A stretch of DNA of 62,910 nucleotides, counting the filler. It is 5 parts of 5 records of this genome, joined end to end, with 100 filler letters (N's around TTAATTAATTAA, not from the genome) between each part and the next. Parts side by side here need not be neighbours in the genome. Positions count along the whole stretch, not along the records: positions 55,763 to 62,910 come from DRR723986_22375; 4 more parts are not named here. The stretch is one strand, 5' to 3'. Position numbers and translations under genes: made by a program. This document shows positions 25,622 through 62,910 of the stretch, one piece after another; the first letter of the stretch is position 1; every line of letters begins with the position of its first letter. The notes beneath the pieces were generated by a model. It made no database searches. It saw nothing but the letters and a program-made list of their open reading frames with translations, and had not been told where the DNA came from.

Positions 25622-25721
25622 NNNNNNNNNNNNNNNNNNNNNNNNNNNNNNNNNNNNNNNNNNNNTTAATTAATTAANNNNNNNNNNNNNNNNNNNNNNN
25701 NNNNNNNNNNNNNNNNNNNNN
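25622..25721. other. Artificial contig linker
   Basis: N44-ttaattaattaa-N44; stops in all six frames; composition and taxon change across it. Confidence 0.98.
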
Positions 25722-32706: not shown

Positions 32707-32806
32707 NNNNNNNNNNNNNNNNNNNNNNNNNNNNNNNNNNNNNNNNNNNNTTAATTAATTAANNNNNNNNNNNNNNNNNNNNNNNNNNNNNNNNNNNNNN
32801 NNNNNN
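32707..32806. other. Artificial contig linker
   Basis: N44-ttaattaattaa-N44. Confidence 0.98.
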
Positions 32807-43686: not shown

Positions 43687-43786
43687 NNNNNNNNNNNNNN
43701 NNNNNNNNNNNNNNNNNNNNNNNNNNNNNNTTAATTAATTAANNNNNNNNNNNNNNNNNNNNNNNNNNNNNNNNNNNNNNNNNNNN
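43687..43786. other. Artificial contig linker
   Basis: N44-ttaattaattaa-N44. Confidence 0.98.
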
Positions 43787-49025: not shown

Positions 49026-52000
49026 TTAACGAACAGTCACGTACGATGTGGAGCTCGTGTTTTGATCTCGCACAACCTTAACAAGGTACACGCCGGGCGT
49101 ACGACCACGAAGATCCAGTGGAACATCCAGAGCTCCGGATACATTCCGGCGTTCGATTGTTAACACCTCACGTCCTAAGATATCCATGACAACAACCTGC
49201 AGCCGGTCGGCATCTGCATTGGCAATCGAGACATTAAACTGTCCATTGTTCGGATTGGGATAGAGTTTCATGTCCCATTGTGCATGGATAACCGGCTCAT
49301 TCGCATTGTGATCATTCTCACCATCACGCAAGAATGACTGTGTTAAACAAACCGGCAAGGAACTGTTAATAGTGCTATTATTACCCAGTTGACCGAACTC
49401 ATTGTTACCCCAGGTACAAACCTGTCCGTCAAGCCGATAGACCAGGCTAAAGGTATATCCGGCGGCAACTCGTTGAACGTTAGCAACATTCGCGTTCTCA
49501 ATTGGCTGCGGAGAGTCAATTAAACTACCGTTTCCGAGTTGTCCAAACTCGTTAGAGCCCCAGACCCAGAGTTCTCCATCATGCATTAGTGCCAAACCGT
49601 GCTCTCTACCGCGCGAGATTTGAGCGGCGCCGGCTAGAACAGGAAGTAGAACAGGAGTAGTACGATCGATCATTAATCCATCACCGACCTGGCCGGAGGA
49701 ATTGTCCCCCCAGCCCCAAACGTTTCCGTTCGACGCAATCGCCGCTCCTCCGGAGCCACCACCTTCGATAAAGACGATGTTCGCCAGGTTGGGCATTAAC
49801 TCTGGAGTACTGACAAATAAAGCGGTCGACCCAGTGCCGAGCAATTGATCTTCGTTGTCTCCCCAGGCCCAAACCGTACCGTCCGCTCTAAGTGCATAAG
49901 CGGTGTTCACGCCGGCCGTAATCTGGATAACGTTGTCGATCCCTGCAAGAAGAACAGGCGCATAGCGCCCCGTCGTCGTGCCATCTCCAACGGCTCCATA
50001 CAAGTTTAAGCCCCAGGACCAGATAGTGCCATCGGCTGCCAACGCATAACAATTTGACTGCCCGGCTGCAATCTGTACGATCTCAGGTAGACCAGGTACT
50101 TCAAATGGAATCGCGACGCGAAAACTTATCTTATTGATTCCTATCTGTCCCCATAAATTGTGCCCCCAGGTAAACACCCGTCCATCATGGGTCAGGGCCA
50201 TCGTATGCTGACCTCCAGCATCAATTGCTGCGAACTCGGGGAGATTCAGGACTTCACCTGGAACAATTCGGTCAATGCCCGTTCCATCGCCAAGCTGGGA
50301 AGAGCCATTATCCCCCCAACTCCAGATGTTTCCAGAAGATGGTTTAACAACGAGGCTGTACCTCTGGCCTGCGGCAAGCAGCATGTCTGCCGGAGGTTTA
50401 ATAAAGAACGTAGCGTCTGATACATCCAGCATGGAATGATTCGCGTCGTTAAGGACTCGAACCAGAGCATCGGACGTGGGTGTCATGGGGATTTCCCAAA
50501 GGAAACTTCCGGTGTTGTCGACCTGATCATCAATCAGAATCCAGTTGTTGCCGCCGTCTGTAGAATACTCTAATCGAGCATGGGTAAATTGGGGGCCACA
50601 AACGTTCCAGGTAATTTCCCAGTTTGTTCCAATGGTTAAGTTTTCGCCGCCATCGGGAGAACTGATTTCAAGAACCTGTGTGCCCGCCGGTACGATTCGG
50701 TCGGTTTGAGTGTCGGAATTCTCTGAGACAATGCCGCTTGCAATCGCACGAACGGCATACGTGTAATCAACGCAGGCTACGGCACTGATATCAGAGTATG
50801 AAGTTGTGTTAGCAATGACATCGATCGTTGAAAGGTTGTTAGCATTGGCGCCTCGCAGAATCGAGTAGCCCGTAACCGTACCACCAGCCGGCGGTGACCA
50901 GGTGAGGTCCATCTCAATATTGTTGGGATCGGGAGTTAACTGCAAGGCAGTTGGTCTTCCAAGCCCTACAATTTCAAATAGGTTACTTGTGCCAATGATT
51001 TGAGAAGGGTTATCGCTGTCACGCACTCTTACAAGCGCTTCAACACTTGGAGTATTAGGTACCTGCCAGGTGTATAAACCAGAGTTAAACACATCCTGAA
51101 CGATAATCTCCCAATTAGCACCGTCGTCATCCGAATACAAAATATCAACACGGTTAACAGCATCGTCACCCGTACCGGTGCTGGTCCAGGTTATGTCACT
51201 CATGCCTCCAACCTGCCATTGGCTGGCTCCCGTTGGCGCCGTGATAGTTATGTTCGCATTTTGTGCCTCGATTGTGAAGTCAGCATCACTAAAATCATTT
51301 ACAATTTCTTCTGCTGCGCTTCGCACGCGAATGCGCGCAGTCGAGATTGGATTGTCGGGGACTTCCCAGATAAAGGAACCGGTATTTGGAATTTCGCCGG
51401 AAATTGGTGTCCAGGCTACCCCACTGTTAACAGAAAAATCAACTATAAGGTTTTCGTTTTGAAAACAACCGGCATCCCAGGTGACTTCCGTTAAACGTCC
51501 AATTTTCCAACTCTCGCCGCCATTTGGAGAAGTCACTTCCAAAGGTGCGCGATCGGCCTGCAGAACAATACGCGGACGAAACCTGCTCGTTGTTCCCGTT
51601 TGGGCTGCACAGGCACCCGTCCCCGCTTCTGCGTGCCGCAAGGACCAGAAGTCGTTTGCATTGGGGCTTTGTTCTTTTTCAGTGTGATTGTGAGCTGTCA
51701 ACGCAGCCTGTGTGGTCCAACAAATGTCAATGAGAAGATTTTGATTTCCGTCCCAGTTAAACAATTGTGAAAAACTGTGCACATTCCAACCATTTTGTGG
51801 AGTAAAGTCAGCAGGACCAAAGACTGTTGTGAGAAGGTTCTCCTCAAAATTTTGCGTCATGTTTGTTGCATTGGTCTGTCTGATTCTAATCTGATAGTTG
51901 TTGAGGGTTGTGTTGTGCGCTGCAAATGCATCAAAAGCCAGAGAACTGATGTCATTGTCGGCAGTGAAACCCTGTGCAGTCAGATCATTGGCAAAAATTA

Positions 52001-55000
52001 AAAACTGCAAGCGCTCGCTACGACTAAAGCGTTTACCGTAGGGCTCACCGCCCGCCTCGTCGGTAGAACCATTCAATTGCGGCGGATTTGGCAAGTGCAC
52101 CGCAGGAATGGCTTTCTGCTCCGTCTGTGCGCCGAAGTTGCTTAAAATCGTCTGTCCATTTTCTGTGTTAAAGAAGGACCTCAGTTGATAGCGATAGTCG
52201 CTGCACAGTGCAACATTGTCGTCGTCAAAGGTATCGATATTCTCATCATTAATAGTTTGCAGAAAACTAAACGTACCACCATTAACGCTGCGGTAGATTT
52301 CATATCCCGTGAGATCATCTGACGTGGAGGGGGTCCAGTTCAGTCGAATTCGAGGAGCACTTGCATTTACCCGCTGCTGTGAAGTGAGCGCAGTAGGCGG
52401 CTGGATTAGCTGAGTTGAAAAGTACTCGCTGATGCTGGATGCATCCTGCCCATTTGAAATCCGAATTCGCATGGAGTTATCGGATGGTATATTCGGTACT
52501 TGCCACAACTGGTTAACCTCAAGCATACCAATATTGGGAACTTCACGAATAAGTTCCCAGGTCTCCCCATCATTGGACCATTCAAGCTGAACATCATCTG
52601 TTTCGACGCCATCTAATTGCACCCATTCTATTTGAGTTTCTGATCCGACTTGCAGAATATCATTGCCACGCGGAGTGGTGATCTGAAAGTCATTTTCAAG
52701 AGCCGTCACTCGAAACACGCGTTCAAGGCTATTATTCTCAGGCGTCATGTCGTTCGTGCCAAGCAGAGTAGCTTTAGCAAAATACTGATCCTGGCTATGC
52801 ATAAATGCCTCGGGGAAGAACACTGATGCCAGTTGCCCAGGATTTAATTGAGGAAGAATCCGAATTTCCTTGTACACTTCCCTTTCACCAGATAAGCCTA
52901 AGGGAGCGACTCGTTTGATTTCAAGCAAAACTGGAACTAAAAAGTGTGTTGTGTTACCGTTGTTTTGAATCTGGACACGTGGGATGGCCGGTGACTCTAC
53001 CGCTTGTCCACTAGGGTCAACGATGTCAAATACTTCAAGATCATGCGGTAAAAGAATAGTGAATGCCTGATCGCTTAAGTCAGGGGCAGCCGCATTGTCA
53101 CGCAGGCTGACGCGAACTCGGCCTTGCGCCGTTGCGACTGCTGGCACTTCCCAATCGTGGTTTATCACTTCTGATTGCGGAACGAGGCGCTCGCTGACGG
53201 GCTCCCAGTTATCACCATCATCACTGGAAAACTCAATCAAAACCCGACTGCCCTCTGGGGCTGCTACACTAATTGTTTCAATGGAGCCGGCATAAAACTG
53301 CCCTCCATTAGGGCCATTGAGTGTAACAATGTCAGTTGGAGCATCATCCGTGACAGTAAAGTGATGAATGACCTGGTCGTTAAAATTCAAATCATCCTGT
53401 CCCTCCGCTATTCTGATCATCATTTGATACTCAAGTGCTATCTCAGGAATAGTTGCTGTCGGCGGCGCAGCGAAGGTCACAGTTTCTGTTGTGTTACTGT
53501 TAAGGGTCGTAATTGTTTGCGTATCGTCCCACACGTTGTCATCAAATTCGCCGCCAAATGGAATGATAGCACACTGGACTTGCAAGCCAAGTATTTGCTC
53601 AGCACCAATATTCCGAATGCTGGCTTGTGGTGCAAAAGGAGCAAATGTTCCAGGCGTACCGTTATCGCCATTATACAAGGTTGCTCCAGCCTGTGGAAGC
53701 AGAATGGCCTCAACTGATGCGTCACGGGATGTTACTGTTCCATTGGGATCGGGATAAACACAGGCTGCATTTTCAGCATGTGCGCGCATACGGTCCTTTG
53801 CGCGTGCGTGAAAACGTAATTCTTGCGGGTTGCAGCCACTCATGATTGTGCCGGTTGGGTGTGGCTGCGGGTTGTTTAGACAATTGTCAATCCGGGGCCA
53901 GTAGGCATTTGTATGAGGTGAATCAAAATTGTGGCCCAATTCATGTGCTAAGTTACGGACATCTCTATGGTCATCCACAAATGCGGCTCCCGTTACATTA
54001 GTGCTGGCTAGCGGAGTCGGCCCCTCTTCACAGAGATCTCCGATGTCCGTTGCGATACCTCCACAACCAAGACCGTTTAACCAAACTACGCAACTGCGCT
54101 GCACATGGCCCATTGTTTGCTCCCAGTTAGTGGACACAATTGGCAACATATTTCTTCGGTATCTACAAGCCGGCCCCTCGGTTGGCCACCGGTCTATGCC
54201 AGGCTCATCATTATCTGGAAAAATCGCACGGTACGGAACAGTATTTACCTCAGGTTCTTCTACCCAAACGCGCAAATAACAGAGCTTAAGATTTGTGCGT
54301 ATATCACGACGATAAATTGCGGATGCTCCACCCAAAAGGAACAAGGCGCGGTTTGCGGTACGCTGTATACTCGGTGGAATGTTGTTCTCTTGATCTCCGC
54401 TATTTTCAAAGAGGTACCAATTGCATTCCATCGCAATTCGTGCTTCGAGCATCGGCCAGTTCAGTAACCTATCAGTATTGCCTTTTCCAGAGAACTGTCT
54501 GACGGGATCGCCGAGAGGTAATTCCTGCTCTTCACCTTCTTCGTCATGCCCGTGACCACTATGATCGTGACCGCAGCTAGATACTTCGGTGGGAACATAG
54601 CCATCCTCATCCTCACGTTGGATTATCACAGAAAGTGGGTTCTCCCCATCCGCGCTTCTGACTGAGTTGACATGAAAACTCTCCGGTGTTGTTGAACCCG
54701 GAGGCCTGAATTCAATGATGCCTTCACAGCTTGTTGAATTTAGCATCAAGTATACAAAGGAGTTAGAAGCTCCTGCGATCTCTCCACTAAGAAATACTGG
54801 GGTTTCAACGTGAAATCTAAACTCTCCGTCCTCTCCAGCTCCTAGCATCTGAACATCATGCGTGAGGACATCGAATCGCTCAAGAGTGAGTTCACTCGAA
54901 CCCAGAATCGGCAAATCCAATGTCAAACTAAAAGGCTGTCCCACGGGCATCGCACGCAGGTCTGAAAGCTTGTCAACATCGACCCGGAATGCTGTGGCAT

Positions 55001-55130
55001 ACTCGGGGTAGTCACTCTGAATGTCGGCCGGCAGATTTGTGGGCATCAATGCATCTGTCTGTGCAGCGGCCCTGTGAGGCAGTACCCCGCACATTATTAT
55101 CAGTGCCAAAAGTAATAGTTGCTTGTGCAT
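49026..55130 (-). CDS. ~2030-aa multidomain M12B/reprolysin-like metalloprotease with Ig-like repeats, FN3, RCC1 repeats and T9SS sorting domain (start re-called at 55130)
   Basis: AAGGAG SD; signal peptide; HELGHNFDSPH (53913-53945) and TIMS Met-turn; five SPxGG...W...YSxDGGxxW repeats; WG.N..GQLG repeats; LYPNP...DILGR...GVYLVK. Confidence 0.88.
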   Translation of the reverse strand: MHKQLLLLALIIMCGVLPHRAAAQTDALMPTNLPADIQSDYPEYATAFRVDVDKLSDLRAMPVGQPFSLTLDLPILGSSELTLERFDVLTHDVQMLGAGEDGEFRFHVETPVFLSGEIAGASNSFVYLMLNSTSCEGIIEFRPPGSTTPESFHVNSVRSADGENPLSVIIQREDEDGYVPTEVSSCGHDHSGHGHDEEGEEQELPLGDPVRQFSGKGNTDRLLNWPMLEARIAMECNWYLFENSGDQENNIPPSIQRTANRALFLLGGASAIYRRDIRTNLKLCYLRVWVEEPEVNTVPYRAIFPDNDEPGIDRWPTEGPACRYRRNMLPIVSTNWEQTMGHVQRSCVVWLNGLGCGGIATDIGDLCEEGPTPLASTNVTGAAFVDDHRDVRNLAHELGHNFDSPHTNAYWPRIDNCLNNPQPHPTGTIMSGCNPQELRFHARAKDRMRAHAENAACVYPDPNGTVTSRDASVEAILLPQAGATLYNGDNGTPGTFAPFAPQASIRNIGAEQILGLQVQCAIIPFGGEFDDNVWDDTQTITTLNSNTTETVTFAAPPTATIPEIALEYQMMIRIAEGQDDLNFNDQVIHHFTVTDDAPTDIVTLNGPNGGQFYAGSIETISVAAPEGSRVLIEFSSDDGDNWEPVSERLVPQSEVINHDWEVPAVATAQGRVRVSLRDNAAAPDLSDQAFTILLPHDLEVFDIVDPSGQAVESPAIPRVQIQNNGNTTHFLVPVLLEIKRVAPLGLSGEREVYKEIRILPQLNPGQLASVFFPEAFMHSQDQYFAKATLLGTNDMTPENNSLERVFRVTALENDFQITTPRGNDILQVGSETQIEWVQLDGVETDDVQLEWSNDGETWELIREVPNIGMLEVNQLWQVPNIPSDNSMRIRISNGQDASSISEYFSTQLIQPPTALTSQQRVNASAPRIRLNWTPSTSDDLTGYEIYRSVNGGTFSFLQTINDENIDTFDDDNVALCSDYRYQLRSFFNTENGQTILSNFGAQTEQKAIPAVHLPNPPQLNGSTDEAGGEPYGKRFSRSERLQFLIFANDLTAQGFTADNDISSLAFDAFAAHNTTLNNYQIRIRQTNATNMTQNFEENLLTTVFGPADFTPQNGWNVHSFSQLFNWDGNQNLLIDICWTTQAALTAHNHTEKEQSPNANDFWSLRHAEAGTGACAAQTGTTSRFRPRIVLQADRAPLEVTSPNGGESWKIGRLTEVTWDAGCFQNENLIVDFSVNSGVAWTPISGEIPNTGSFIWEVPDNPISTARIRVRSAAEEIVNDFSDADFTIEAQNANITITAPTGASQWQVGGMSDITWTSTGTGDDAVNRVDILYSDDDGANWEIIVQDVFNSGLYTWQVPNTPSVEALVRVRDSDNPSQIIGTSNLFEIVGLGRPTALQLTPDPNNIEMDLTWSPPAGGTVTGYSILRGANANNLSTIDVIANTTSYSDISAVACVDYTYAVRAIASGIVSENSDTQTDRIVPAGTQVLEISSPDGGENLTIGTNWEITWNVCGPQFTHARLEYSTDGGNNWILIDDQVDNTGSFLWEIPMTPTSDALVRVLNDANHSMLDVSDATFFIKPPADMLLAAGQRYSLVVKPSSGNIWSWGDNGSSQLGDGTGIDRIVPGEVLNLPEFAAIDAGGQHTMALTHDGRVFTWGHNLWGQIGINKISFRVAIPFEVPGLPEIVQIAAGQSNCYALAADGTIWSWGLNLYGAVGDGTTTGRYAPVLLAGIDNVIQITAGVNTAYALRADGTVWAWGDNEDQLLGTGSTALFVSTPELMPNLANIVFIEGGGSGGAAIASNGNVWGWGDNSSGQVGDGLMIDRTTPVLLPVLAGAAQISRGREHGLALMHDGELWVWGSNEFGQLGNGSLIDSPQPIENANVANVQRVAAGYTFSLVYRLDGQVCTWGNNEFGQLGNNSTINSSLPVCLTQSFLRDGENDHNANEPVIHAQWDMKLYPNPNNGQFNVSIANADADRLQVVVMDILGREVLTIERRNVSGALDVPLDLRGRTPGVYLVKVVRDQNTSSTSYVTVR

Positions 55131-55632
55131 CTGAACGAGACTCCTTGTCAATTTCTACGACAATGCCCAGTGCTTCCAGGTAGTGGATCTAAGCAGTGTC
55201 TCAGGTAATACTGTGAACATTTGCATCAAGCTAGGACATACTCTGCAGCCATAAAAGGTATAAATTTGCGACCCTGTAGGCCCTTCCCCCATACGTGTGG
55301 AATTCGTAATGCTGCATTTTATTCTTTAATACTTGAAGCCGTTTTATAGAGATAATCACAATGTAATCTGGCCTGGAACTTGAGCGCTTCGCCCCACGCT
55401 CTGCGTTTGTGGCTTGCTTTATCTGCTTGTTTTGCGCTGAGTGCCAAGGCAAGAGCAGCTGAGTCTGCCACCATCTAAACTTCATCAAACCAAAGTGCCA
55501 GGCTGCATGCCGGAAGGTGATAATTCTGCGCAATTTCAAAGCAAATATTCCAGCCCGGTGAATGGCGGCACAGACATTAACATTTGCATTTCACAGACTT
55601 GACACAATCTTTGTGCTTTGGGACTTCAATCC

Positions 55633-55662: not shown

Positions 55663-55762
55663 NNNNNNNNNNNNNNNNNNNNNNNNNNNNNNNNNNNNNN
55701 NNNNNNTTAATTAATTAANNNNNNNNNNNNNNNNNNNNNNNNNNNNNNNNNNNNNNNNNNNN
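55663..55762. other. Artificial contig linker
   Basis: N44-ttaattaattaa-N44. Confidence 0.98.
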
Positions 55763-55763
55763 T

Positions 55764-55832
55764 ATCGTCGAGGCCGATGGCGAGGTGATCTATCAGGTCA
55801 AGGACATGAAAGTGGCGCTCAGCGAAAGCTGA
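55764..55832 (+). CDS. fabA: 3' end of 3-hydroxydecanoyl-ACP dehydratase/isomerase (5'-truncated; absent from ORF track)
   Basis: IVEADGEVIYQVKDMKVALSES* resembles the alphaproteobacterial FabA C-terminus; fabB lies downstream. Confidence 0.8.
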   Translation: MVEADGEVIYQVKDMKVALSES

Positions 55833-55875
55833 TCTGAAACAGCGCCTTTCCCCTTCCAAAGGTAACGACAAGACC

Positions 55876-56322
55876 ATGACTGACAACAAGCGCGTCGTCC
55901 TTTCCAGCGATCATGCGGCCATTGCGCTGCGTCAGGCGGTGGCGGATCATGTCGCCGCCGCAGGGTGGGAGGTGGTCGATATCGGCCCCACAACACCTGA
56001 AAGCACACATTACCCGCTGCATGGCAAGGCAGCCGCCGACCGCGTGGCCTCTGGCGATTGTGCGCTTGGCATCATCCTGTGCGGCACCGGCCAGGGCATC
56101 ATGATGGCTGCCAACAAGCTGCCGGGCATCCGTTGTGGTGTCTGTTCCGACACGTTCTCCGCCGCCATGATCCGCCAGCACAATGACGCCAACATGTTGT
56201 CCATCGGGGCCCGCGTCGTGGGTGAAGGGCTGGCGCTGGCTATCGTCGACGCCTTCCTGAACGCGGAGTTCGAAGGCGGCCGCCATGCCACCCGCGTGGA
56301 CATGATCGAGCCCAAGGGCTGA
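55876..56322 (+). CDS. rpiB: Ribose 5-phosphate isomerase B (RpiB/LacAB family)
   Basis: SDHAA, ILCGTGQG, ANKLPGIR, HNDAN, FEGGRHATRV. Confidence 0.92.
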   Translation: MTDNKRVVLSSDHAAIALRQAVADHVAAAGWEVVDIGPTTPESTHYPLHGKAAADRVASGDCALGIILCGTGQGIMMAANKLPGIRCGVCSDTFSAAMIRQHNDANMLSIGARVVGEGLALAIVDAFLNAEFEGGRHATRVDMIEPKG

Positions 56323-56346
56323 GAGTCACGTCATCCTCCAGAAAAC

Positions 56347-56374
56347 AAAAAGAGGCCTGCTGGCCTCTTTTTTT
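56347..56374 (+). terminator. Rho-independent terminator after rpiB
   Basis: aaaaagaggcc-tgct-ggcctcttttttt. Confidence 0.88.
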
Positions 56375-56460
56375 GTTTGGCGGTGACTTTCGGTCCATAG
56401 CCGCCATTCATCACACGTGAGATCTCAAAGCACATTTCACTGAACCTGCCATTCGCTGCC

Positions 56461-56626
56461 CAACCGGGAACGGGGCGGTGGTTAGTGGGAATGCGCGCGT
56501 TCGCGGTACGGCCCGAAAGAATGAACCGCTTGAACAACGCCCATTCCTCGTTCGAAATCAGGTATCCATCACAGTTACCAGCTTGCATCATGCGCAACCG
56601 CGAGTGTGCATCCCCTTTACCAGCAT
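56461..56626 (-). mobile_element. IS5-family remnant (transposase N-terminal fragment plus degenerate left end)
   Basis: LISNEEWALFKRFILSGRTANARIPTNHR resembles the IS5-family N-terminus (SDEEW...GRKPxNHR); truncated. Confidence 0.7.
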
Positions 56627-57303
56627 TGGTTCGCCAAACTCCCGATCATTTGTTCCGAACCACTACAAGGAGATCAGCTCTGTGATTGGTTTGTACTCCT
56701 GCGTGGCTGCCTGCAAGACGCGCACATTGATTGGGTGCAGGCTTAATCCGGTATCTTGATCCCGCACTGTGCCACTCAGTTGCTTCACAGCCCGCAGTTT
56801 AACCTTGTGCGTTGAAACTTTCGACGGTGCCGCGTTGATGTTGTGATGCGTTGCGATGCCAAGAAAATGCACGAGGAGTTCCAGAACGGCCTCATCTCTG
56901 TCAAATGCCAATACTTCCATTCTGCCTCCGGGGTTAATACGTCCCACCGATTCGTTCTTGTATCGCCCAGAATTGGGGCTGCATTTTGTCGGACTGGTGA
57001 ACTTCTTCCGCCGATGATGCCGTTTCGGTGACGTTTTTTTTGTGGCCCTCGCGACACTGAAACGTCGACACCGGGCGATCCTTAACATTCATTCCCGGTT
57101 GATAGGCTAAACCCCCGCTATGCCATAAGAAACGCGTCACTGTACTAGACTTGGATAGGTCACTGTTACAACGTCATATATATCGTGGCTGCATCTAGGC
57201 TTCTTGTCGTGGACATCTTTGACTCGCGTAACTCATTTTGTTGATCAGATAGGTTATTCATTGGGTTGCCGGTTCGGAAACATTGCAGGCAATTCGACGG
57301 CAC

Positions 57304-57354
57304 TGTGGATAAAAAACATTGCGATAAGGGTTTCACGGGTTAACATGTTTTAAA
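57304..57354. promoter_or_regulatory. Perfect DnaA box plus near-consensus CtrA box upstream of the methyltransferase
   Basis: TGTGGATAA at 57304-57312; minus strand TTTA-N7-TTAAC at 57339-57354 (8/9 match). Confidence 0.35.
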
Positions 57355-57406
57355 AAAGTACTCGTGCAGTCAGTCACTCTTATCTGCAATACGGAGTCCA
57401 TCTCCC

Positions 57407-58177
57407 ATGCCGTCACTCGGTCATCTTGAGGCGTCAGCGCCCTTGAATCTTGTATTGTCCAAATCGGCTAAAGCGCCGGTTCGGGCCGATTGGAGCGCCT
57501 ATGCGACAGCCTATGATCTGTTGTCCGAGCATAACCCGGCATACCAGGCGCTACTACGAGAATTCGAGGGCTTTCTTGAAACGATAGAAACTCCGGGCCT
57601 GATCTACGACATCGGCGGCGGTACCGGGAACTATACAGAGATTGCGGCCCGCATCTGCCCCGAGAGTGAAATCATGCTGGTCGAACCAGATGTCGGCATG
57701 CTTGGCGTTGCGCAGGCGAAATTGTCGGGTCACGACAATGTCGAATACGATTCACGCGCGCTTGAAGACTTCGATGCGTCGGGCACTGCGGATCTCGTCA
57801 TTTGCGTCCATGCGCTTTACGCGATGCCTGATCAGAGGCAGCGGTTGAAAGATCTGCGCCGCTTGCTCCGTCCCGGCGGTCGGCTCTACCTCGTTGATCT
57901 CGGTCGCAACATGAACGTGGCCGACTGGCGCCGCTACCTATTCGCTCACTTGAAACAAGAACATGGGCTGTTTGGCGCATTGCGGATCTTCTGGCAGGGG
58001 CGGGAGATCGCCAAGCAGAACGCGACCATTCTCGAAGCACAGAAGAAGGGCGCGTACTGGACCCATACCGAGGCTGAAATCGCATCGGCTGCGACCGAAG
58101 CAGGCTTCGACATCATCAGGCAAGACTCGGTTTATCGCGGTTACAGCGATTTGCTTGTGTGTCGCGCGACGTCTTGA
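57407..58177 (+). CDS. Class I SAM-dependent methyltransferase
   Basis: GGAG SD; YDIGGGTGN motif I, VEPDVGML, ADLVICVHALY, LLRPGGRL. Confidence 0.92.
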   Translation: MPSLGHLEASAPLNLVLSKSAKAPVRADWSAYATAYDLLSEHNPAYQALLREFEGFLETIETPGLIYDIGGGTGNYTEIAARICPESEIMLVEPDVGMLGVAQAKLSGHDNVEYDSRALEDFDASGTADLVICVHALYAMPDQRQRLKDLRRLLRPGGRLYLVDLGRNMNVADWRRYLFAHLKQEHGLFGALRIFWQGREIAKQNATILEAQKKGAYWTHTEAEIASAATEAGFDIIRQDSVYRGYSDLLVCRATS

Positions 58178-58202
58178 TCGAGTTTAGGCGGAAGGAACGA
58201 AA

Positions 58203-58892
58203 ATGAACGAGCAAGTCATCGAAGCACTCAAGCTCTATCGCTACAAGGTTCTGACCGACAGCAAGGACCTCGAAGAACTCTATCGCCTCCGCTACAAGTG
58301 CTACCGCGCCGAGCGGTCGATCGCCTCGAACGAGCGCGAGACCATGACCGATGCGTTCGACGAGACCGCGAATTGCGTCCATGTCGCGGTGACGCTGGAC
58401 AAGCAGATCCTTGCGGCTGTGCGCCTGCATCTGGTGTCCAGGCTCTGCCTGACATCACCAACTGTCGAAGTGTTTCCCGAGATCCTGGAACAGACCGCTC
58501 CCACACAGACGATCCTGGATCCGACCCGCTTTGTTATTGATCCCTCAGCGCGCGCACAACGCGTCCCGCTGCATTTTCTCACCCTGCGTATCCCGTTTCT
58601 TGCGACGATGTTCTACGATATCGACTTGGCTCTGGCCCCGGTTCGGGCGGAACATACCGCGTTCTATCGCCGCTACCTCGGCTATGTACCGATGATGCAG
58701 CCAAGGGATTATCCCGGGCTGAAGAAGCCGATCCACCTGCTGACGGCCAAGGTGAAGGAACAGCGTCATGCAGTTCTGGCCCGGACACCGGTTTTCGGAC
58801 CCGTCGAAGAAATCCCGCACTCCAACATTCTCTTCCCGTCCCTTTCGGATGTGTATGCCGCGTCAAAGGGGGGCCATTCGGAGGCGGCCTGA
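58203..58892 (+). CDS. FeeM-like N-acyl amino acid synthase (GNAT fold, LuxI-related)
   Basis: LYRLRYKCY, DAFDE, AAVRLH, EVFPE, DPTRF, VRAEHTAFYRRYLG. Confidence 0.8.
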   Translation: MNEQVIEALKLYRYKVLTDSKDLEELYRLRYKCYRAERSIASNERETMTDAFDETANCVHVAVTLDKQILAAVRLHLVSRLCLTSPTVEVFPEILEQTAPTQTILDPTRFVIDPSARAQRVPLHFLTLRIPFLATMFYDIDLALAPVRAEHTAFYRRYLGYVPMMQPRDYPGLKKPIHLLTAKVKEQRHAVLARTPVFGPVEEIPHSNILFPSLSDVYAASKGGHSEAA

Positions 58893-59096
58893 CCTGCACA
58901 AGGCGCACGCGCGCACTGACAAAAAAACCGGCCTCCGTCTTGCGCGAGTCGATGCCTCTCCTCGGGCGCTCTATCCGGCGTTCGGACGGCTTGCCTCAAA
59001 TATTGCCAATAAACAGCCGTGTTTCGCCTGAGGAATGCCGGAATTCCCATGTAGGCCGCTACTGCGAAAGACAATGAAGCAGCGGCAGAGGCGGTC

Positions 59097-60506
59097 ATGA
59101 AGGTCCAGAATGCGTATTGGGAGGCGCGGGGCGACTGGTTGAACTCCGTCGGTCGCGAACAGCGCATCAAGGATTACATCACTCTGGCCAACCAGTTGAT
59201 CTGGCAGCGGCAGGGGAGTTTTCTCGCCGCGGCCATGCTCGCGGCCTTCTACTTCAATCCGATCACGACCTTCGCATGCTACATTTGCGTCGCGCTGACA
59301 GAGTTGCTCGACCAGAACCTTGGGCGACATTCCAGGGCTTGGGATGGCAAGGACCCGGTGGTCGGTCGGCAGATCCTCAAGCGCATTGCCCTGAATACGG
59401 TCGTCAGTGCGCTGGCGATCAGCGTCTTTATCACCAACATTGCAATTCAGCAGACATCAGGCGGGCATTTCACGCCGCTTTTCTTCCTGTTCTCGGCATC
59501 GCTTTTCGCAGTGATGTACAACAGTCAAATGGCCGGCATCCTTCTTTTGCGCCTGTCGATCTATGCATTGGCGTTTCTCAGCATCGCTTTGCTGGACGTG
59601 CTGAGGTATTCACCGCCGCTCAGCTCCAATATCTGGCTGGAGTTCTTCACGATCATCTTCGTGCTCTATTTCATCATCGATATTTCGGCAAAATTCTACG
59701 TCCGCTATCAGGAGCGACTCGATCAGATGAAACTGATCAAAGAAGAAAACGAACGCACCAAGGCCGCCTTGGAAGTAAAGCGCCAATTCCTGGCCACGGT
59801 CAGCCACGAACTGCGCACACCTCTGACGTCGATCATGGGCTCGCTCGATCTCGTGAACTACGGTGCGCTCGGCGAGGTGCCCGAGAAACTGAAACCAGCT
59901 ATCCGCATCGCCGCCAAGAACGGGAAGCGACTTGCCAATCTGATCGATGACCTGCTCGATCTGCAAAAAATCGAAGCCGGCGAGATGGAGTTCCACTTCA
60001 AGCCGATCAGCGTGAATGACCTTATGCACGAGGCTGTAGAATCGACGGCTGGATATGCGGACAAGCTCGGTATTCACGTGACGACCGTCCCTTGCCTGCA
60101 TGACTGCCAGATCATGGGGGATCGCAGCCGCCTTATGCAGGTAATGAATAACCTTCTGTCGAACGCTTTGAAGTTCTCCGACGAGGGGGGAACGGTGGAG
60201 GTCTGCGTGCAGATCGTTGGCGCGCGAGTCCGTATCTCGGTCCATGACGAAGGAGTAGGTATTCCGAAAGACGCCAAGGATCGCGTGTTCGGCAAGTTCA
60301 CCCAGGTAGACTCCTCTGATGTGCGCAAGGTTGGTGGCACCGGGCTTGGTCTCAACATCACAAAGCAGATTGTTCAACGCCACAACGCCACAATTGACTA
60401 CGTCAGCGAGCTGGGTGTTGGCTCGACCTTTTTTGTCGAGTTCGATTGCCTGAAAGACGAAAGCGGAGAGAGCGCTGACATTGAGCCTGTGGCAGAAGTG
60501 GCCTGA
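59097..60506 (+). CDS. Membrane sensor histidine kinase (~6 TM, HisKA + HATPase)
   Basis: Hydrophobic N-terminal ~200 aa; SHELRTPLTSI H-box; NLLSNALKF; DEGVGI; GGTGLGL. Confidence 0.95.
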   Translation: MKVQNAYWEARGDWLNSVGREQRIKDYITLANQLIWQRQGSFLAAAMLAAFYFNPITTFACYICVALTELLDQNLGRHSRAWDGKDPVVGRQILKRIALNTVVSALAISVFITNIAIQQTSGGHFTPLFFLFSASLFAVMYNSQMAGILLLRLSIYALAFLSIALLDVLRYSPPLSSNIWLEFFTIIFVLYFIIDISAKFYVRYQERLDQMKLIKEENERTKAALEVKRQFLATVSHELRTPLTSIMGSLDLVNYGALGEVPEKLKPAIRIAAKNGKRLANLIDDLLDLQKIEAGEMEFHFKPISVNDLMHEAVESTAGYADKLGIHVTTVPCLHDCQIMGDRSRLMQVMNNLLSNALKFSDEGGTVEVCVQIVGARVRISVHDEGVGIPKDAKDRVFGKFTQVDSSDVRKVGGTGLGLNITKQIVQRHNATIDYVSELGVGSTFFVEFDCLKDESGESADIEPVAEVA

Positions 60507-61135
60507 GACACGATAGTCGACTGGGTTTGGCGTGCTATGTTTTTAGGTGTGGCTGGATGAAATGGGCGAGCAGGAGATTTATTAGAATAACTACATGGGT
60601 TTCAAAGATCGGCTTATCCCTGTTGGAATTTGCGCTGCCATTATTAATTGAATTTTCTTAATGACATTATCAGGGATTCAAGCAAGGCGACGGTCGATCT
60701 GAAGCCGCGCCAAGGGGTGAGCGATGTGCCAAAATATGGGTTATCGGTTGCATCAAGGGCGTTCATCCATGCGACCGCCTGATCGTACCTGCAATGAATC
60801 CCTTGAGATGCAAGCGACATCGGCAGGTGTTCGACGGGGGCACCCTCCCCTGCATGGGCGCTCTTCTTTTTTCGTTCTGTGAAATAATTCCCGAATATGG
60901 ACTCTTTCGAATCAAGAATTGAGTGATGTAAGAGTGCCAAAATTTTAAGTGAAACAATAACGATATCTGTAGTCATTAGTTACGGATCGCGGTTCGTGGG
61001 GCGGAACCGTGTTTCAATCGTGTCAATTTATTGATTTGTTGTGACATTTGTGCGAATCCAATGAATTGATCTTGATTTTATAATTATCTGCGTTAACCTT
61101 TTGGAAAGTCTCGGGGGAGAAAGTTGAGGAAACCA

Positions 61136-62104
61136 ATGTCGAGCGATATGAGAATACTTGTTGCTGATGACGATAGTGCAATTCTTGAACTTTTGAGCAT
61201 TGCCCTTGAAGTCCTGGGCTTCGACTCGGTCACTCTGGCCCGCAATGGCGCAGAGGCGCTGGACATCGTTCGGTCGTCCAAGACCGAGTTCGATTGCTTC
61301 CTCATTGACATCCAGATGCCCAAGTTGGACGGGATTGAGTTTTGCGCCTCTGTCCGAGCCCTTCCCGAGTACAGATCCACCCCCGTTGTCATGCTGACAG
61401 CGATGTCCGACCGAAAGTACATCGAACGCTCGCTCGCTGCCGGGGCCACCGACTATGTGACGAAGCCGTTCGAAATCATGGATCTCAAGGCCCGCCTCAA
61501 TTCTGCGACCCAGGCCTACAAGCTTGCGCAGGAAGGGCGCGCGATGACCGAGCGGCTTCATGCGTTGGCTGACGATCTGGTTCATCGCAACGGGGTCGAG
61601 CTTGGGGACACGTTCGACATCGAGGACGTACCCGGCTACTTGAACTTCGGGAAGTTCAAGGGATTGGTGAAGGACTTTGGCGAGTGCGGAATGCAACATG
61701 CCGAATTCGTCGTTTTGCAGATCGACGATGTTGCGTCGATCTACAACGCCTGTGGACCCTCCGGATATTTCAATTTCATTTGCGATGTGTCCGACGCCAT
61801 TTCTGAGGTGGTCACGCAAGACGGTTATCTCTTCTCCTATGTCGGGAACGGTGCCTTCGTTGTCTTCGACCCGCGCTCTCGTCAAAGCATCGACAAGTCG
61901 GATATCGGAGCGGACGTCGAAGAATCCGCGGCCGCTCTTGGACTTGTGTTCTCTGACGGGACGCCCATCCCGATCAGGCTCCAGCAAAGTGAGGCCTTTG
62001 GCTTCAAGGATATGTCATTGCACAGCCGAGAGGACCTGACCCGGCTTTCGACGGTCCAATCCGCCAGATCTTTTGGAGATCCGCTTGTTGGGCAGGTGGT
62101 ATAG
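61136..62104 (+). CDS. Response regulator: REC plus degenerate GGDEF-like domain (start re-called at 61136)
   Basis: GAGG SD; LVADDD, DIQMP, MLTA, YVTKPF; LQIDD...IYNACG and SYVGNGAF in place of the GGDEF motifs. Confidence 0.88.
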   Translation: MSSDMRILVADDDSAILELLSIALEVLGFDSVTLARNGAEALDIVRSSKTEFDCFLIDIQMPKLDGIEFCASVRALPEYRSTPVVMLTAMSDRKYIERSLAAGATDYVTKPFEIMDLKARLNSATQAYKLAQEGRAMTERLHALADDLVHRNGVELGDTFDIEDVPGYLNFGKFKGLVKDFGECGMQHAEFVVLQIDDVASIYNACGPSGYFNFICDVSDAISEVVTQDGYLFSYVGNGAFVVFDPRSRQSIDKSDIGADVEESAAALGLVFSDGTPIPIRLQQSEAFGFKDMSLHSREDLTRLSTVQSARSFGDPLVGQVV

Positions 62105-62380
62105 CGGAGAGTGCTACGCACTCCAGGCGTCGTCGAGATATTCTGAACGGGCGTTTTGACTAATCCTTAGCTGCTAGAAGAGCCGAGGGTCGAGCGGCCG
62201 GGCCAGATCTGATGCTTGATCATCACCAACCCACCTGCGCGGCGCGAGATGGGCCCATTTGTCTTGTCGCCGCAGTCAACGGGCACGCCCGTAAAGCTGA
62301 CCTCGCCACGACCGCACCGAAGGTCTGCTACTCGCCCTAACTGCCATGACAATCAATATCGAGGCCTCCACCTCTCCTCC

Positions 62381-62410
62381 TTGCACCTTCCCCCGCCAAT
62401 GCCCTACTAA
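62381..62410 (+). promoter_or_regulatory. Sigma70-type promoter for fabB
   Basis: TTGCAC (62381-62386), 18 nt, TACTAA (62405-62410); SD gggagg follows. Confidence 0.5.
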
Positions 62411-62436
62411 GATGAGAGCAAAACAAGGGAGGCCAC

Positions 62437-62910
62437 ATGCGCCGAGTAGTTGTTACGGGCCTTGGGATCGTCTCGTCGATCGGGAACAATGCCGAAGAGG
62501 TCACGGCCAGCCTGAAAGCGGGCAAATCCGGTATCGAAGCCAGCCCCGAAATGGTCGAGCACGGGTTCCGCAGCCAGATTGCGGGCACGCTGAAGATCGA
62601 CCCGAAAGACCATGTCGACAAGCGCGCCCTGCGCTTCATGGGACCGGGTGCGGCCTATGCCCATATTGCGATGACGCAAGCCATTGCTGATGCCGGGTTG
62701 TCCGACGACCATGTCAGCAACGTGCGCACCGGTCTGGTGGCGGGGTCTGGCGGGCCGTCGACAAGCGCGATGTTGGTGGCCCATCAGACGGTTCTGTCCA
62801 CCGGCGCGACCAAGCGGATCGGGCCTTTCGCAGTGCCCAAATGCATGTCCTCTACGATTTCGGCCAACCTTGCCACGGCCTTCAAGATCAAGGGCATCAA
62901 CTATTCCATC
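62437..62910 (+). CDS. fabB: Beta-ketoacyl-ACP synthase I (3'-truncated; absent from ORF track)
   Basis: MRRVVVTGLGIVSSIGNN...GFRSQIAG...RFMG...GSGGPST...VPKCMSSTISANLATAFKIKGINYSI. Confidence 0.93.
   Translation, partial: MRRVVVTGLGIVSSIGNNAEEVTASLKAGKSGIEASPEMVEHGFRSQIAGTLKIDPKDHVDKRALRFMGPGAAYAHIAMTQAIADAGLSDDHVSNVRTGLVAGSGGPSTSAMLVAHQTVLSTGATKRIGPFAVPKCMSSTISANLATAFKIKGINYSI

Follow-up and report, generated by a model that had tools for sequence, protein, structure and literature searches.

A candidate LuxR-independent acyl-signal module of roseobacters: FeeM-type synthase, methyltransferase and membrane kinase

What might a roseobacter do with a gene block that combines a FeeM-type N-acyl synthase, a methyltransferase and a membrane kinase? 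Roseobacters are abundant marine, alga-associated bacteria, and methyl esters of N-acyl amino acids (NAMEs) have been known from them since 2013 as look-alikes of AHLs (N-acyl homoserine lactones). The block in question lies on a Nioella-like contig, the last of five joined in the 62,910-nucleotide stretch of DNA analysed here (the window; the contig covers positions 55763-62910). Its four genes code for a class I S-adenosylmethionine (SAM)-dependent methyltransferase (MT), the synthase (NAS), a membrane histidine kinase (HK) and a response regulator (RR). An earlier interpretation made without database searches (the sequence-only reading) had taken these co-oriented genes for an AHL-independent circuit of synthase, methyltransferase and kinase/regulator. 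Calls of open reading frames (ORFs) place all four on the plus strand, and the circuit is supported, by comparison only, with every computational check proposed for it turning out favourably. On balance we favour the view that the locus represents a LuxR-independent acyl-signal module, in which a NAME-type ester would be made and then sensed by the adjoining kinase.

The synthase and its gene triad

NAS scores 125.3 bits on the Pfam family FeeM (PF21926; cut-off 27), whereas it stays below the cut-offs of the LuxI-type family Autoind_synth (PF00765; 21.9 bits against 24) and of the NCBIfam TraI-type model (23.6 bits against 250). The fold points in the same direction: an AlphaFold model (predicted local distance difference test, pLDDT, 89.5) has FeeM (2G0B) as its best match (Foldseek E 8e-10, template modelling (TM) score on the target 0.77-0.80) and is less close to the LuxI-type enzymes BjaI, LasI and RpaI (TM 0.61-0.65). 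LuxI enzymes carry an N-terminal R...F...W motif with a role in SAM binding; in alignments to 6WNS and 3P2F, its tryptophan column is occupied by serine or isoleucine in NAS. Identity between NAS and FeeM in the structural alignment is about 13-16%, a single-sequence search of the PDB did not find FeeM, and a profile of the NAS family is about equally distant by sequence from LuxI-type structures and from FeeM. The sequence-only reading had described the enzyme as FeeM-like, and family scores and fold bear this out. NAS has the Pfam family, the fold and the predicted chemistry (N-acylation of a free amino acid) in common with FeeM, but its partners are a methyltransferase and a kinase rather than the Fee cluster or the PEP-CTERM/exosortase context.

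Of the 25 orthologous loci, spread over some ten roseobacter genera (among them Nioella, Roseovarius, Sulfitobacter, Pseudorhodobacter, Loktanella, Roseicyclus and Celeribacter), 24 retain the full triad of MT, NAS and HK; MT orthologues (60-97% identity) adjoin NAS in all 25. Linkage kept to this extent rules out a chance adjacency of the three genes and bears out their proposed co-occurrence. The 25 loci comprise 14 from named genomes, four from an even sample of 401 Rhodobacteraceae genomes (the family sample) and seven from a set of 101 genomes in the genus to which Roseovarius sp. 217 belongs (the genus sample). In the named genomes the three genes adjoin in 14 of 14 loci (63-97% identity), once in the order NAS-MT-HK and once with the kinase cut by the contig end. 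The NAS query matched nine genomes of the family sample, five of them with orthologues; one of the five is the Roseovarius sp. 217 locus (L003) already counted, and in each of the other four the triad is intact. NAS was present in ten genomes of the genus sample, from which seven places in six genomes were fetched (G469, G476 and G485 being left aside). Six of these are complete triads; the seventh, a second copy of MT-NAS, stops at the edge of its contig in a receiver fragment. Few genomes carry the triad (5 of 401 in the family sample, 10 of 101 in the genus sample), in keeping with the "singular occurrence" that PMC6296433 ascribes to NAMEs (this paper, PMC3824088, PMC11580390 and PMC11631085 are cited throughout for their accessible parts). 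Some Roseovarius genomes carry two NAS copies (L043/L044 of genome G490; P0148/P0149; P0024/P0028), and in G490, which has two MT-NAS pairs, the kinase was seen with one pair only.

The sequence-only reading had also remarked on the missing LuxR gene, and this observation held. A LuxR-type gene was not found on the contig of the finding by ORF and Pfam scans, 59 flanking ORFs of 10 related loci gave no match to Autoind_bind, and 40 ORFs of eight loci held no LuxR-type receptor (Autoind_bind plus GerE).

Contigs from RNA libraries of three studies match MT and NAS at 95-100% identity, and single contigs from two studies bridge the MT-NAS junction (X15, 57439-58859; X16, 57395-58326; X17, 57808-58637). 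RR is also covered in one RNA-library run. Such contigs show neither strand nor transcript ends; none was found over the kinase or the upstream spacer, a gap that proves nothing.

The kinase family, its methyltransferases and the regulator

The catalytic part of HK is conventional (Pfam HisKA 67.8 bits, HATPase_c 98.9 bits), and an NCBIfam LuxQ match covers this core only. Residues 1-215 match no Pfam family. They hold about six hydrophobic helices, so that the sensor lies almost wholly in the membrane; its Atlas neighbours are unnamed, and MASE-type leads stayed below 0.9. This sensor domain was matched in 52 of the 401 Rhodobacteraceae genomes and in none of 300 other Alphaproteobacteria genomes sampled. 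Within the family sample, nine genomes hold a FeeM gene scoring above 100 bits on the Pfam model ("strong FeeM"; two intermediate matches, in G143 and G394, fall outside this count), and seven of the nine genes adjoin a kinase homologue.

With which synthases are the remaining kinases associated? We considered the 19 best kinase-homologue places without strong FeeM, about 30 further places, two of them on very short contigs, having lower scores. Their kinases are 44-66% identical to HK over the full length, and in 18 of the 19 places a LuxI-type gene lies within about 3.2 kb of the kinase (13 recognised by Pfam Autoind_synth at 34-59 bits, five by tblastn alone). The LuxI-like neighbour matches TofI, BjaI, RpaI and LasI and keeps the N-terminal motif including the tryptophan, and no LuxR-type gene was found in the 42 ORFs scanned at kinase-homologue loci without strong FeeM. 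Loci of this kind have been described before: Cude and Buchan (2013; PMC3824088) reported that roseobacters have orphan luxI genes with a kinase upstream, suggested a LuxN-like role for the kinases, and noted that kinases related to HK are at most 26% identical to LuxN. By our reading, their orphan LuxI (I-delta) plus kinase loci, of topologies H, I and J, involve the same kinase family. These loci and ours have in common that a membrane kinase adjoins an acyl-signal synthase and that LuxR is missing, but here a FeeM-type synthase and a methyltransferase take the place of the LuxI-type enzyme, a gene set not listed in the accessible part of that paper. Our locus would join the roseobacter "orphan LuxI plus kinase" loci into one receptor family.

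A tree of 40 kinase sequences (IQ-TREE quick search, LG+G4, midpoint root) arranges the kinases by synthase. The 19 kinases linked to FeeM plus class I methyltransferase form one group (Shimodaira-Hasegawa-like approximate likelihood ratio test, SH-aLRT, 99) with the kinase of locus L023 as sister, and two kinases linked to FeeM plus a methyltransferase resembling PEMT/ICMT form another (SH-aLRT 100), within the LuxI-linked kinases. Because both FeeM-linked groups nest among LuxI-linked kinases at the midpoint root, LuxI would, under that root, have been replaced by FeeM plus methyltransferase twice and independently. At L023 itself (1619-2327) the LuxI-like gene is split over two frames with an internal stop, representing either a pseudogene or a sequencing error.

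The methyltransferases follow the synthases. MT contains a Rossmann-type class I domain (Pfam Methyltransf_12/11/25/23/31, 44-54 bits). It has no NCBIfam equivalog, only weak sub-threshold matches there, among them carboxyl O-methyltransferase families (BioC 34 bits against a cut-off of 185, Tam 31 against 297, Mtf2 22 against 400), and its PDB and Atlas matches are generic methyltransferases or clusters that are unnamed or generic. A methyltransferase gene adjoins or overlaps all nine strong FeeM genes: five are class I orthologues, one is a distant class I enzyme (L042) and three are small membrane methyltransferases of the PEMT/ICMT/DUF1295 kind (L019, L020 and L021), in the order kinase, membrane methyltransferase, FeeM at L020 and L021. 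The class I and the PEMT/ICMT-like enzymes are unrelated to each other, and neither type occurs in the 19 LuxI-linked loci (0 of 19). Among the loci sampled, a methyltransferase accompanies FeeM-type and never LuxI-type synthases. LuxI alone makes a neutral lactone, while the product of a FeeM-type enzyme is a free acid, for which a methyltransferase would be needed to arrive at a neutral, AHL-like ester. The data thereby suggest a chemical rule, methyl esterification in place of lactonisation.

Three of these FeeM loci have further features of their own. At L042 (5839-11045), the FeeM-family gene and the class I methyltransferase gene overlap by 11 nt and are followed by genes for a FAD-binding enzyme and a tryptophan-halogenase-like protein, with no kinase; this set is probably a different natural-product cluster. 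At L019 (4322-7175), a FeeM gene whose product is 39% identical to NAS overlaps with the gene of a PEMT-like membrane enzyme, a 538-aa protein of no known family follows, and no kinase of the HK family was found at the locus. At L020 (6519-10695), the kinase/membrane-methyltransferase/FeeM set is followed by a PF04445 methyltransferase, a TetR regulator and HlyD and MFS efflux genes, the latter two being possible exporter candidates for the product.

RR begins with a Pfam Response_reg receiver domain (PF00072, 97 bits), and its residues 130-326 match no Pfam family. Its structural model (pLDDT 80) consists of a receiver domain, a long helix and a degenerate GGDEF-like domain, although Pfam GGDEF was not detected in the sequence, and the whole-length Foldseek matches are headed by WspR (3BRE, 2e-17), followed by DgcR and PleD, with WpsR also among them. 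RR therefore has the three-part architecture and fold of the WspR/PleD-type cyclases (3BRE, 6ZXM, 1W25) but differs from them in its motif, GNGAF in place of GG[D/E]EF. In an alignment of 26 homologues (A1), D15, D16, D62, T92 and K114 of the receiver domain are invariant and G241, G243 and F245 are conserved, whereas the acidic pair of the GGDEF motif is absent in all 26. Judged from these residues, RR is a putatively phosphorylatable receiver (REC)/pseudo-GGDEF protein and not a transcription factor, and cyclase activity is unlikely because the GGDEF motif is degenerate and both acidic residues are lost. The kinase-regulator pairing, which the sequence-only reading had left unproven, holds at the family level: an RR homologue (at least 240 residues aligned) stands beside the kinase in 16 of the 19 LuxI-set loci, and one lies within the fetched stretch in nine of the 25 triad loci, in addition to the window itself. 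At the triads of Roseovarius sp. 217 (L003:9567-14203) and of genome G100 (L017:1779-5310), an Hpt protein, a single-domain receiver and two to three REC/GGDEF-like regulators adjoin, which hints at a multi-step phosphorelay there.

What the module would make and sense

Taken together, these comparisons are consistent with the following mechanism. NAS would join a fatty acyl chain, presumably from acyl-acyl carrier protein, to a free amino acid, and MT would methylate the carboxylate, giving a neutral methyl ester of the N-acyl amino acid, of the NAME type found in Roseovarius and Loktanella. The cognate membrane receptor of this ester would be the six-helix kinase, which would pass phosphate to the REC/degenerate-GGDEF regulator, whose output would probably be protein- or nucleotide-mediated rather than exerted by DNA binding. 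We infer the acyl donor, the amino acid, methylation at the carboxyl oxygen, ligand binding by the kinase and the partner in phosphotransfer. The module is argued for by the kinase family being otherwise tied to orphan LuxI, by the methyltransferase rule and by the pairing with RR at the family level. That MT and NAS make methylated N-acyl amino acids seems probable; that HK senses their product is a step we accept with less assurance, though we lean towards it.

The link to NAMEs can be made in the producer itself, Roseovarius tolerans EL-164 (PMC6296433, PMC4582587). Its protein ROTO_01950 falls in the 90% cluster of the NAS match P0013, and the NAS of genome G490, which is 99% identical to ROTO_01950, has MT and HK adjoining (L043). 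NAMEs, like their analogues with glycine, valine and aminobutyrate, were reported only from Roseovarius and Loktanella strains (PMC6296433, accessible part), and a Loktanella genome with the triad is among our loci (L007). The proposal that the genes should occur in ester producers is supported to this extent, by NAS in R. tolerans and by the triad in a Loktanella genome. The genome note on EL-164 of 2015 files ROTO_01950 and ROTO_01960 among LuxI/LuxR-type genes (PMC4582587). A paper of 2024 states, in its accessible part and citing a thesis of 2017, that no candidate NAME synthase gene was found (PMC11580390). This agrees with the remark in the sequence-only reading that no established biosynthetic genes are known, and we found no later identification in a literature search outside which most subscription journals lie. 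The accessible supplements of PMC11580390 contain nothing on FeeM, N-acyl amino acid synthase or autoinducer. A differentially expressed methyltransferase in its supplement 3, PVU19_RS00975, was considered as the MT of the triad and dropped because it stands beside hemH, which is not near either MT-NAS copy of G490. ROTO_01950 and its neighbours are therefore named candidates in the producer strain, a candidate receptor included, and the question of what NAMEs are for becomes approachable through candidate synthase and receptor genes.

Known systems with a similar logic exist outside the family. In Ralstonia, the genes of PhcB-PhcS-PhcR/Q are clustered as well, a SAM methyltransferase makes a lipophilic methyl ester and a membrane histidine kinase senses it. 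The Phc signals are methyl 3-hydroxy fatty acid esters, unlike the ester predicted here, which would be formed on an N-acyl amino acid supplied by a second enzyme. The Vibrio pairs LuxM-LuxN, AinS-AinR and CqsA-CqsS combine a synthase with a polytopic membrane kinase for a lipophilic autoinducer and do so without LuxR. They differ in synthase families and in the sensor domain; moreover, HK is non-hybrid, and RR is REC/GGDEF-like and not LuxO-like.

Several observations weigh against a signal made and sensed by this locus. Synthase-kinase linkage is equally expected if the kinase merely controls expression of the synthase, and as the sensor family of HK occurs in many genomes without a FeeM gene, the ligand class is an extrapolation. 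No characterised enzyme is closely related to MT, so that O-, N- and C-methylation are indistinguishable here, and the direction of the synthase swaps hangs on the midpoint root. On the regulator side, an orthologous RR adjoins the triad only in Nioella, most triad loci have no full-length RR in the fetched DNA, and RR itself has a degenerate GGDEF motif and no DNA-binding domain. The RNA-library contigs may contain DNA. Finally, we saw no NAME report for triad genera such as Sulfitobacter, Celeribacter and Nioella, and the accessible part of PMC11580390 gives micromolar levels of C16:1-NAME (2-17 uM), which exceed the inhibitory concentrations published for it, and makes the case for a role as antibiotic.

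These NAME levels also bear on the main rival, that the kinase controls production instead of sensing the product. NAME-type esters would then be effectors (antibiotic, antialgal or surfactant), and kinase and regulator would respond to another cue, such as the state of membrane or envelope or a foreign AHL, and adjust production accordingly. Besides the antibiotic case of PMC11580390, the sensor is almost wholly intramembrane, like membrane-state sensors, and the linkage data do not separate a product sensor from an operon controller. We nevertheless regard this rival as rather unlikely: in 18 of 19 further loci the kinase family goes with LuxI-type signal synthases, the tree sorts the kinases by type of synthase, as expected of receptors paired with signals, and the regulator, lacking a DNA-binding domain, has no direct means of controlling the operon.

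Less probable again, and to our minds improbable, is that the two enzymes produce a lipid, be it a methylated membrane aminolipid or some other (such as an acyl amino acid that is N-methylated or modified in another way), with the kinase monitoring the membrane and no diffusible signal involved. FeeM, OlsB and GlsB are related N-acyltransferases used for roseobacter aminolipids (PMC11631085), and three of the nine FeeM genes stand beside PEMT-like enzymes, whose Pfam family is named for phospholipid N-methylation. No O-acyltransferase of the OlsA/PlsC type was found in the flanking ORFs scanned, however; occurrence is infrequent and patchy (5 of 401 genomes), kinases of this family stand with LuxI-type synthases elsewhere, and the methyl esters secreted by R. 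tolerans agree with the chemistry predicted here (PMC6296433).

That NAS is a divergent LuxI making an ordinary or unusual AHL, with an unrelated task for MT, is very improbable: database names ("acyl-homoserine-lactone synthase", "autoinducer synthase"), the filing of ROTO_01950/_01960 in PMC4582587 and a family profile that matches LuxI-type structures as well as FeeM speak for it, but the Autoind_synth score is below the cut-off against 125 bits for FeeM, the structural model resembles FeeM most, NAS lacks the tryptophan of the N-terminal LuxI motif, and a methyltransferase stands at 9 of 9 FeeM-type genes against 0 of 19 LuxI-type neighbours.

Returning to the reading of an ester made by MT and NAS and sensed by HK, a wider picture can be drawn, which is possible but which we put forward tentatively and with some doubt as a whole. 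Rhodobacteraceae would possess a second, LuxR-independent acyl-signal language with a family-specific six-helix receptor kinase, whose signal was re-invented twice by exchange of LuxI for FeeM plus methyltransferase. NAMEs would be true autoinducers, with the ester in place of the lactone ring, and the output would pass through the degenerate-GGDEF regulator and a conserved 33-residue receiver-fragment peptide encoded upstream of MT.

The upstream mini-ORF, the borders and the genomic context

The putative peptide belongs to a mini-ORF that is divergent from MT (Table 1). Only its first 33 codons (56822-56920) are conserved, and these equal the first strand-helix-strand of a receiver domain. 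Of 26 triad-type loci, 25 have the mini-ORF, and it extends into a full-length regulator in L017 only; it has no Pfam match. By blastn, positions 56822-56993 are conserved across genera (69-77% identity), and the remaining spacer is not. Diversity at the three codon positions is 0.31/0.22/0.56, the ATG is invariant, a nearly invariant GGAG lies 6-9 nt upstream (alignment A3, 22 loci), and a conserved box follows about 50-85 nt upstream of the ATG. Because third positions vary most and an invariant ATG is preceded by GGAG, these patterns point to a translated peptide under selection.

Table 1. Features on the contig of the finding (positions along the window)
Feature	Position	Strand	Evidence or remark
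fabA 3' end, last 22 codons and stop, left border	55764-55832	+	97% DNA match to G003:C14:147634-147702
rpiB (context, outside the module)	55876-56322	+	Pfam LacAB_rpiB 179 bits, NCBIfam RpiB
Strong bidirectional terminator-like hairpin, 3' of rpiB	56347-56372		Promoter and terminator scan
Mini-ORF, divergent from MT, 85 aa from conserved ATG	56663-56920	-	
Mini-ORF leader, GGAG Shine-Dalgarno and upstream box	56921-56995	-	Alignment A3
MT, class I SAM-dependent methyltransferase, 256 aa	57407-58177	+	Pfam
NAS, FeeM-family N-acyl synthase, 229 aa	58203-58892	+	Pfam PF21926
HK, membrane histidine kinase, 469 aa	59097-60506	+	HisKA and HATPase_c; sensor domain 59097-59741
RR, response regulator, 326 aa	61124-62104	+	Pfam Response_reg
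fabB 5' part, right border	62437-62910	+	NCBIfam KAS I 4e-66

The gaps within the block are 25 nt between MT and NAS and 204 nt between NAS and HK, both as given by the sequence-only reading; that between HK and RR, given there as about 630 nt, measures 617 nt. The placement of the block between fabA and fabB also stood in outline, with the refinement that the contig contains no more of fabA than its last 22 codons and that rpiB and about 1.1 kb lie between fabA and MT. The identity of fabA follows from the counterpart ORF in Nioella ostreopsis (G003), which ends at this point and scores 146 bits on Pfam FabA (PF07977); the fabB start has DNA matches of 90-91% in G003 and G004, adjoining or near fabA. 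Across 55763-62910 there was no Rfam match, and scans for promoters and terminators stayed at or below shuffle level except for the hairpin after rpiB.

The nearest relatives of NAS are those of N. ostreopsis (94%) and N. aestuarii (91%), and both species keep the block elsewhere. In N. ostreopsis, about 0.85 kb separates fabA from fabB, and a contig of 5,991 bases holds the four-gene block alone; in N. aestuarii, fabA-rpiB and fabB are separated by 4.4 kb with a winged-helix/TPR gene between them, and the block is on another contig. Here the fabA-fabB interval is about 6.6 kb and includes rpiB and the block. Because this interval varies among Nioella and the flanks of the triad vary from genus to genus, the block behaves as an apparently insertable cassette. 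The locus was not found in G001, a genome that shares 25% of the window's words.

The pieces of the window are joined by linkers (N44, a 12-base stop-codon spacer and N44) at 25622-25721, 32707-32806, 43687-43786 and 55663-55762, and may stem from different organisms. G+C is about 0.55-0.60 on the contig of the finding against about 0.49 on the preceding piece, which holds an ORF of 2041 aa on the minus strand (49026-55151).

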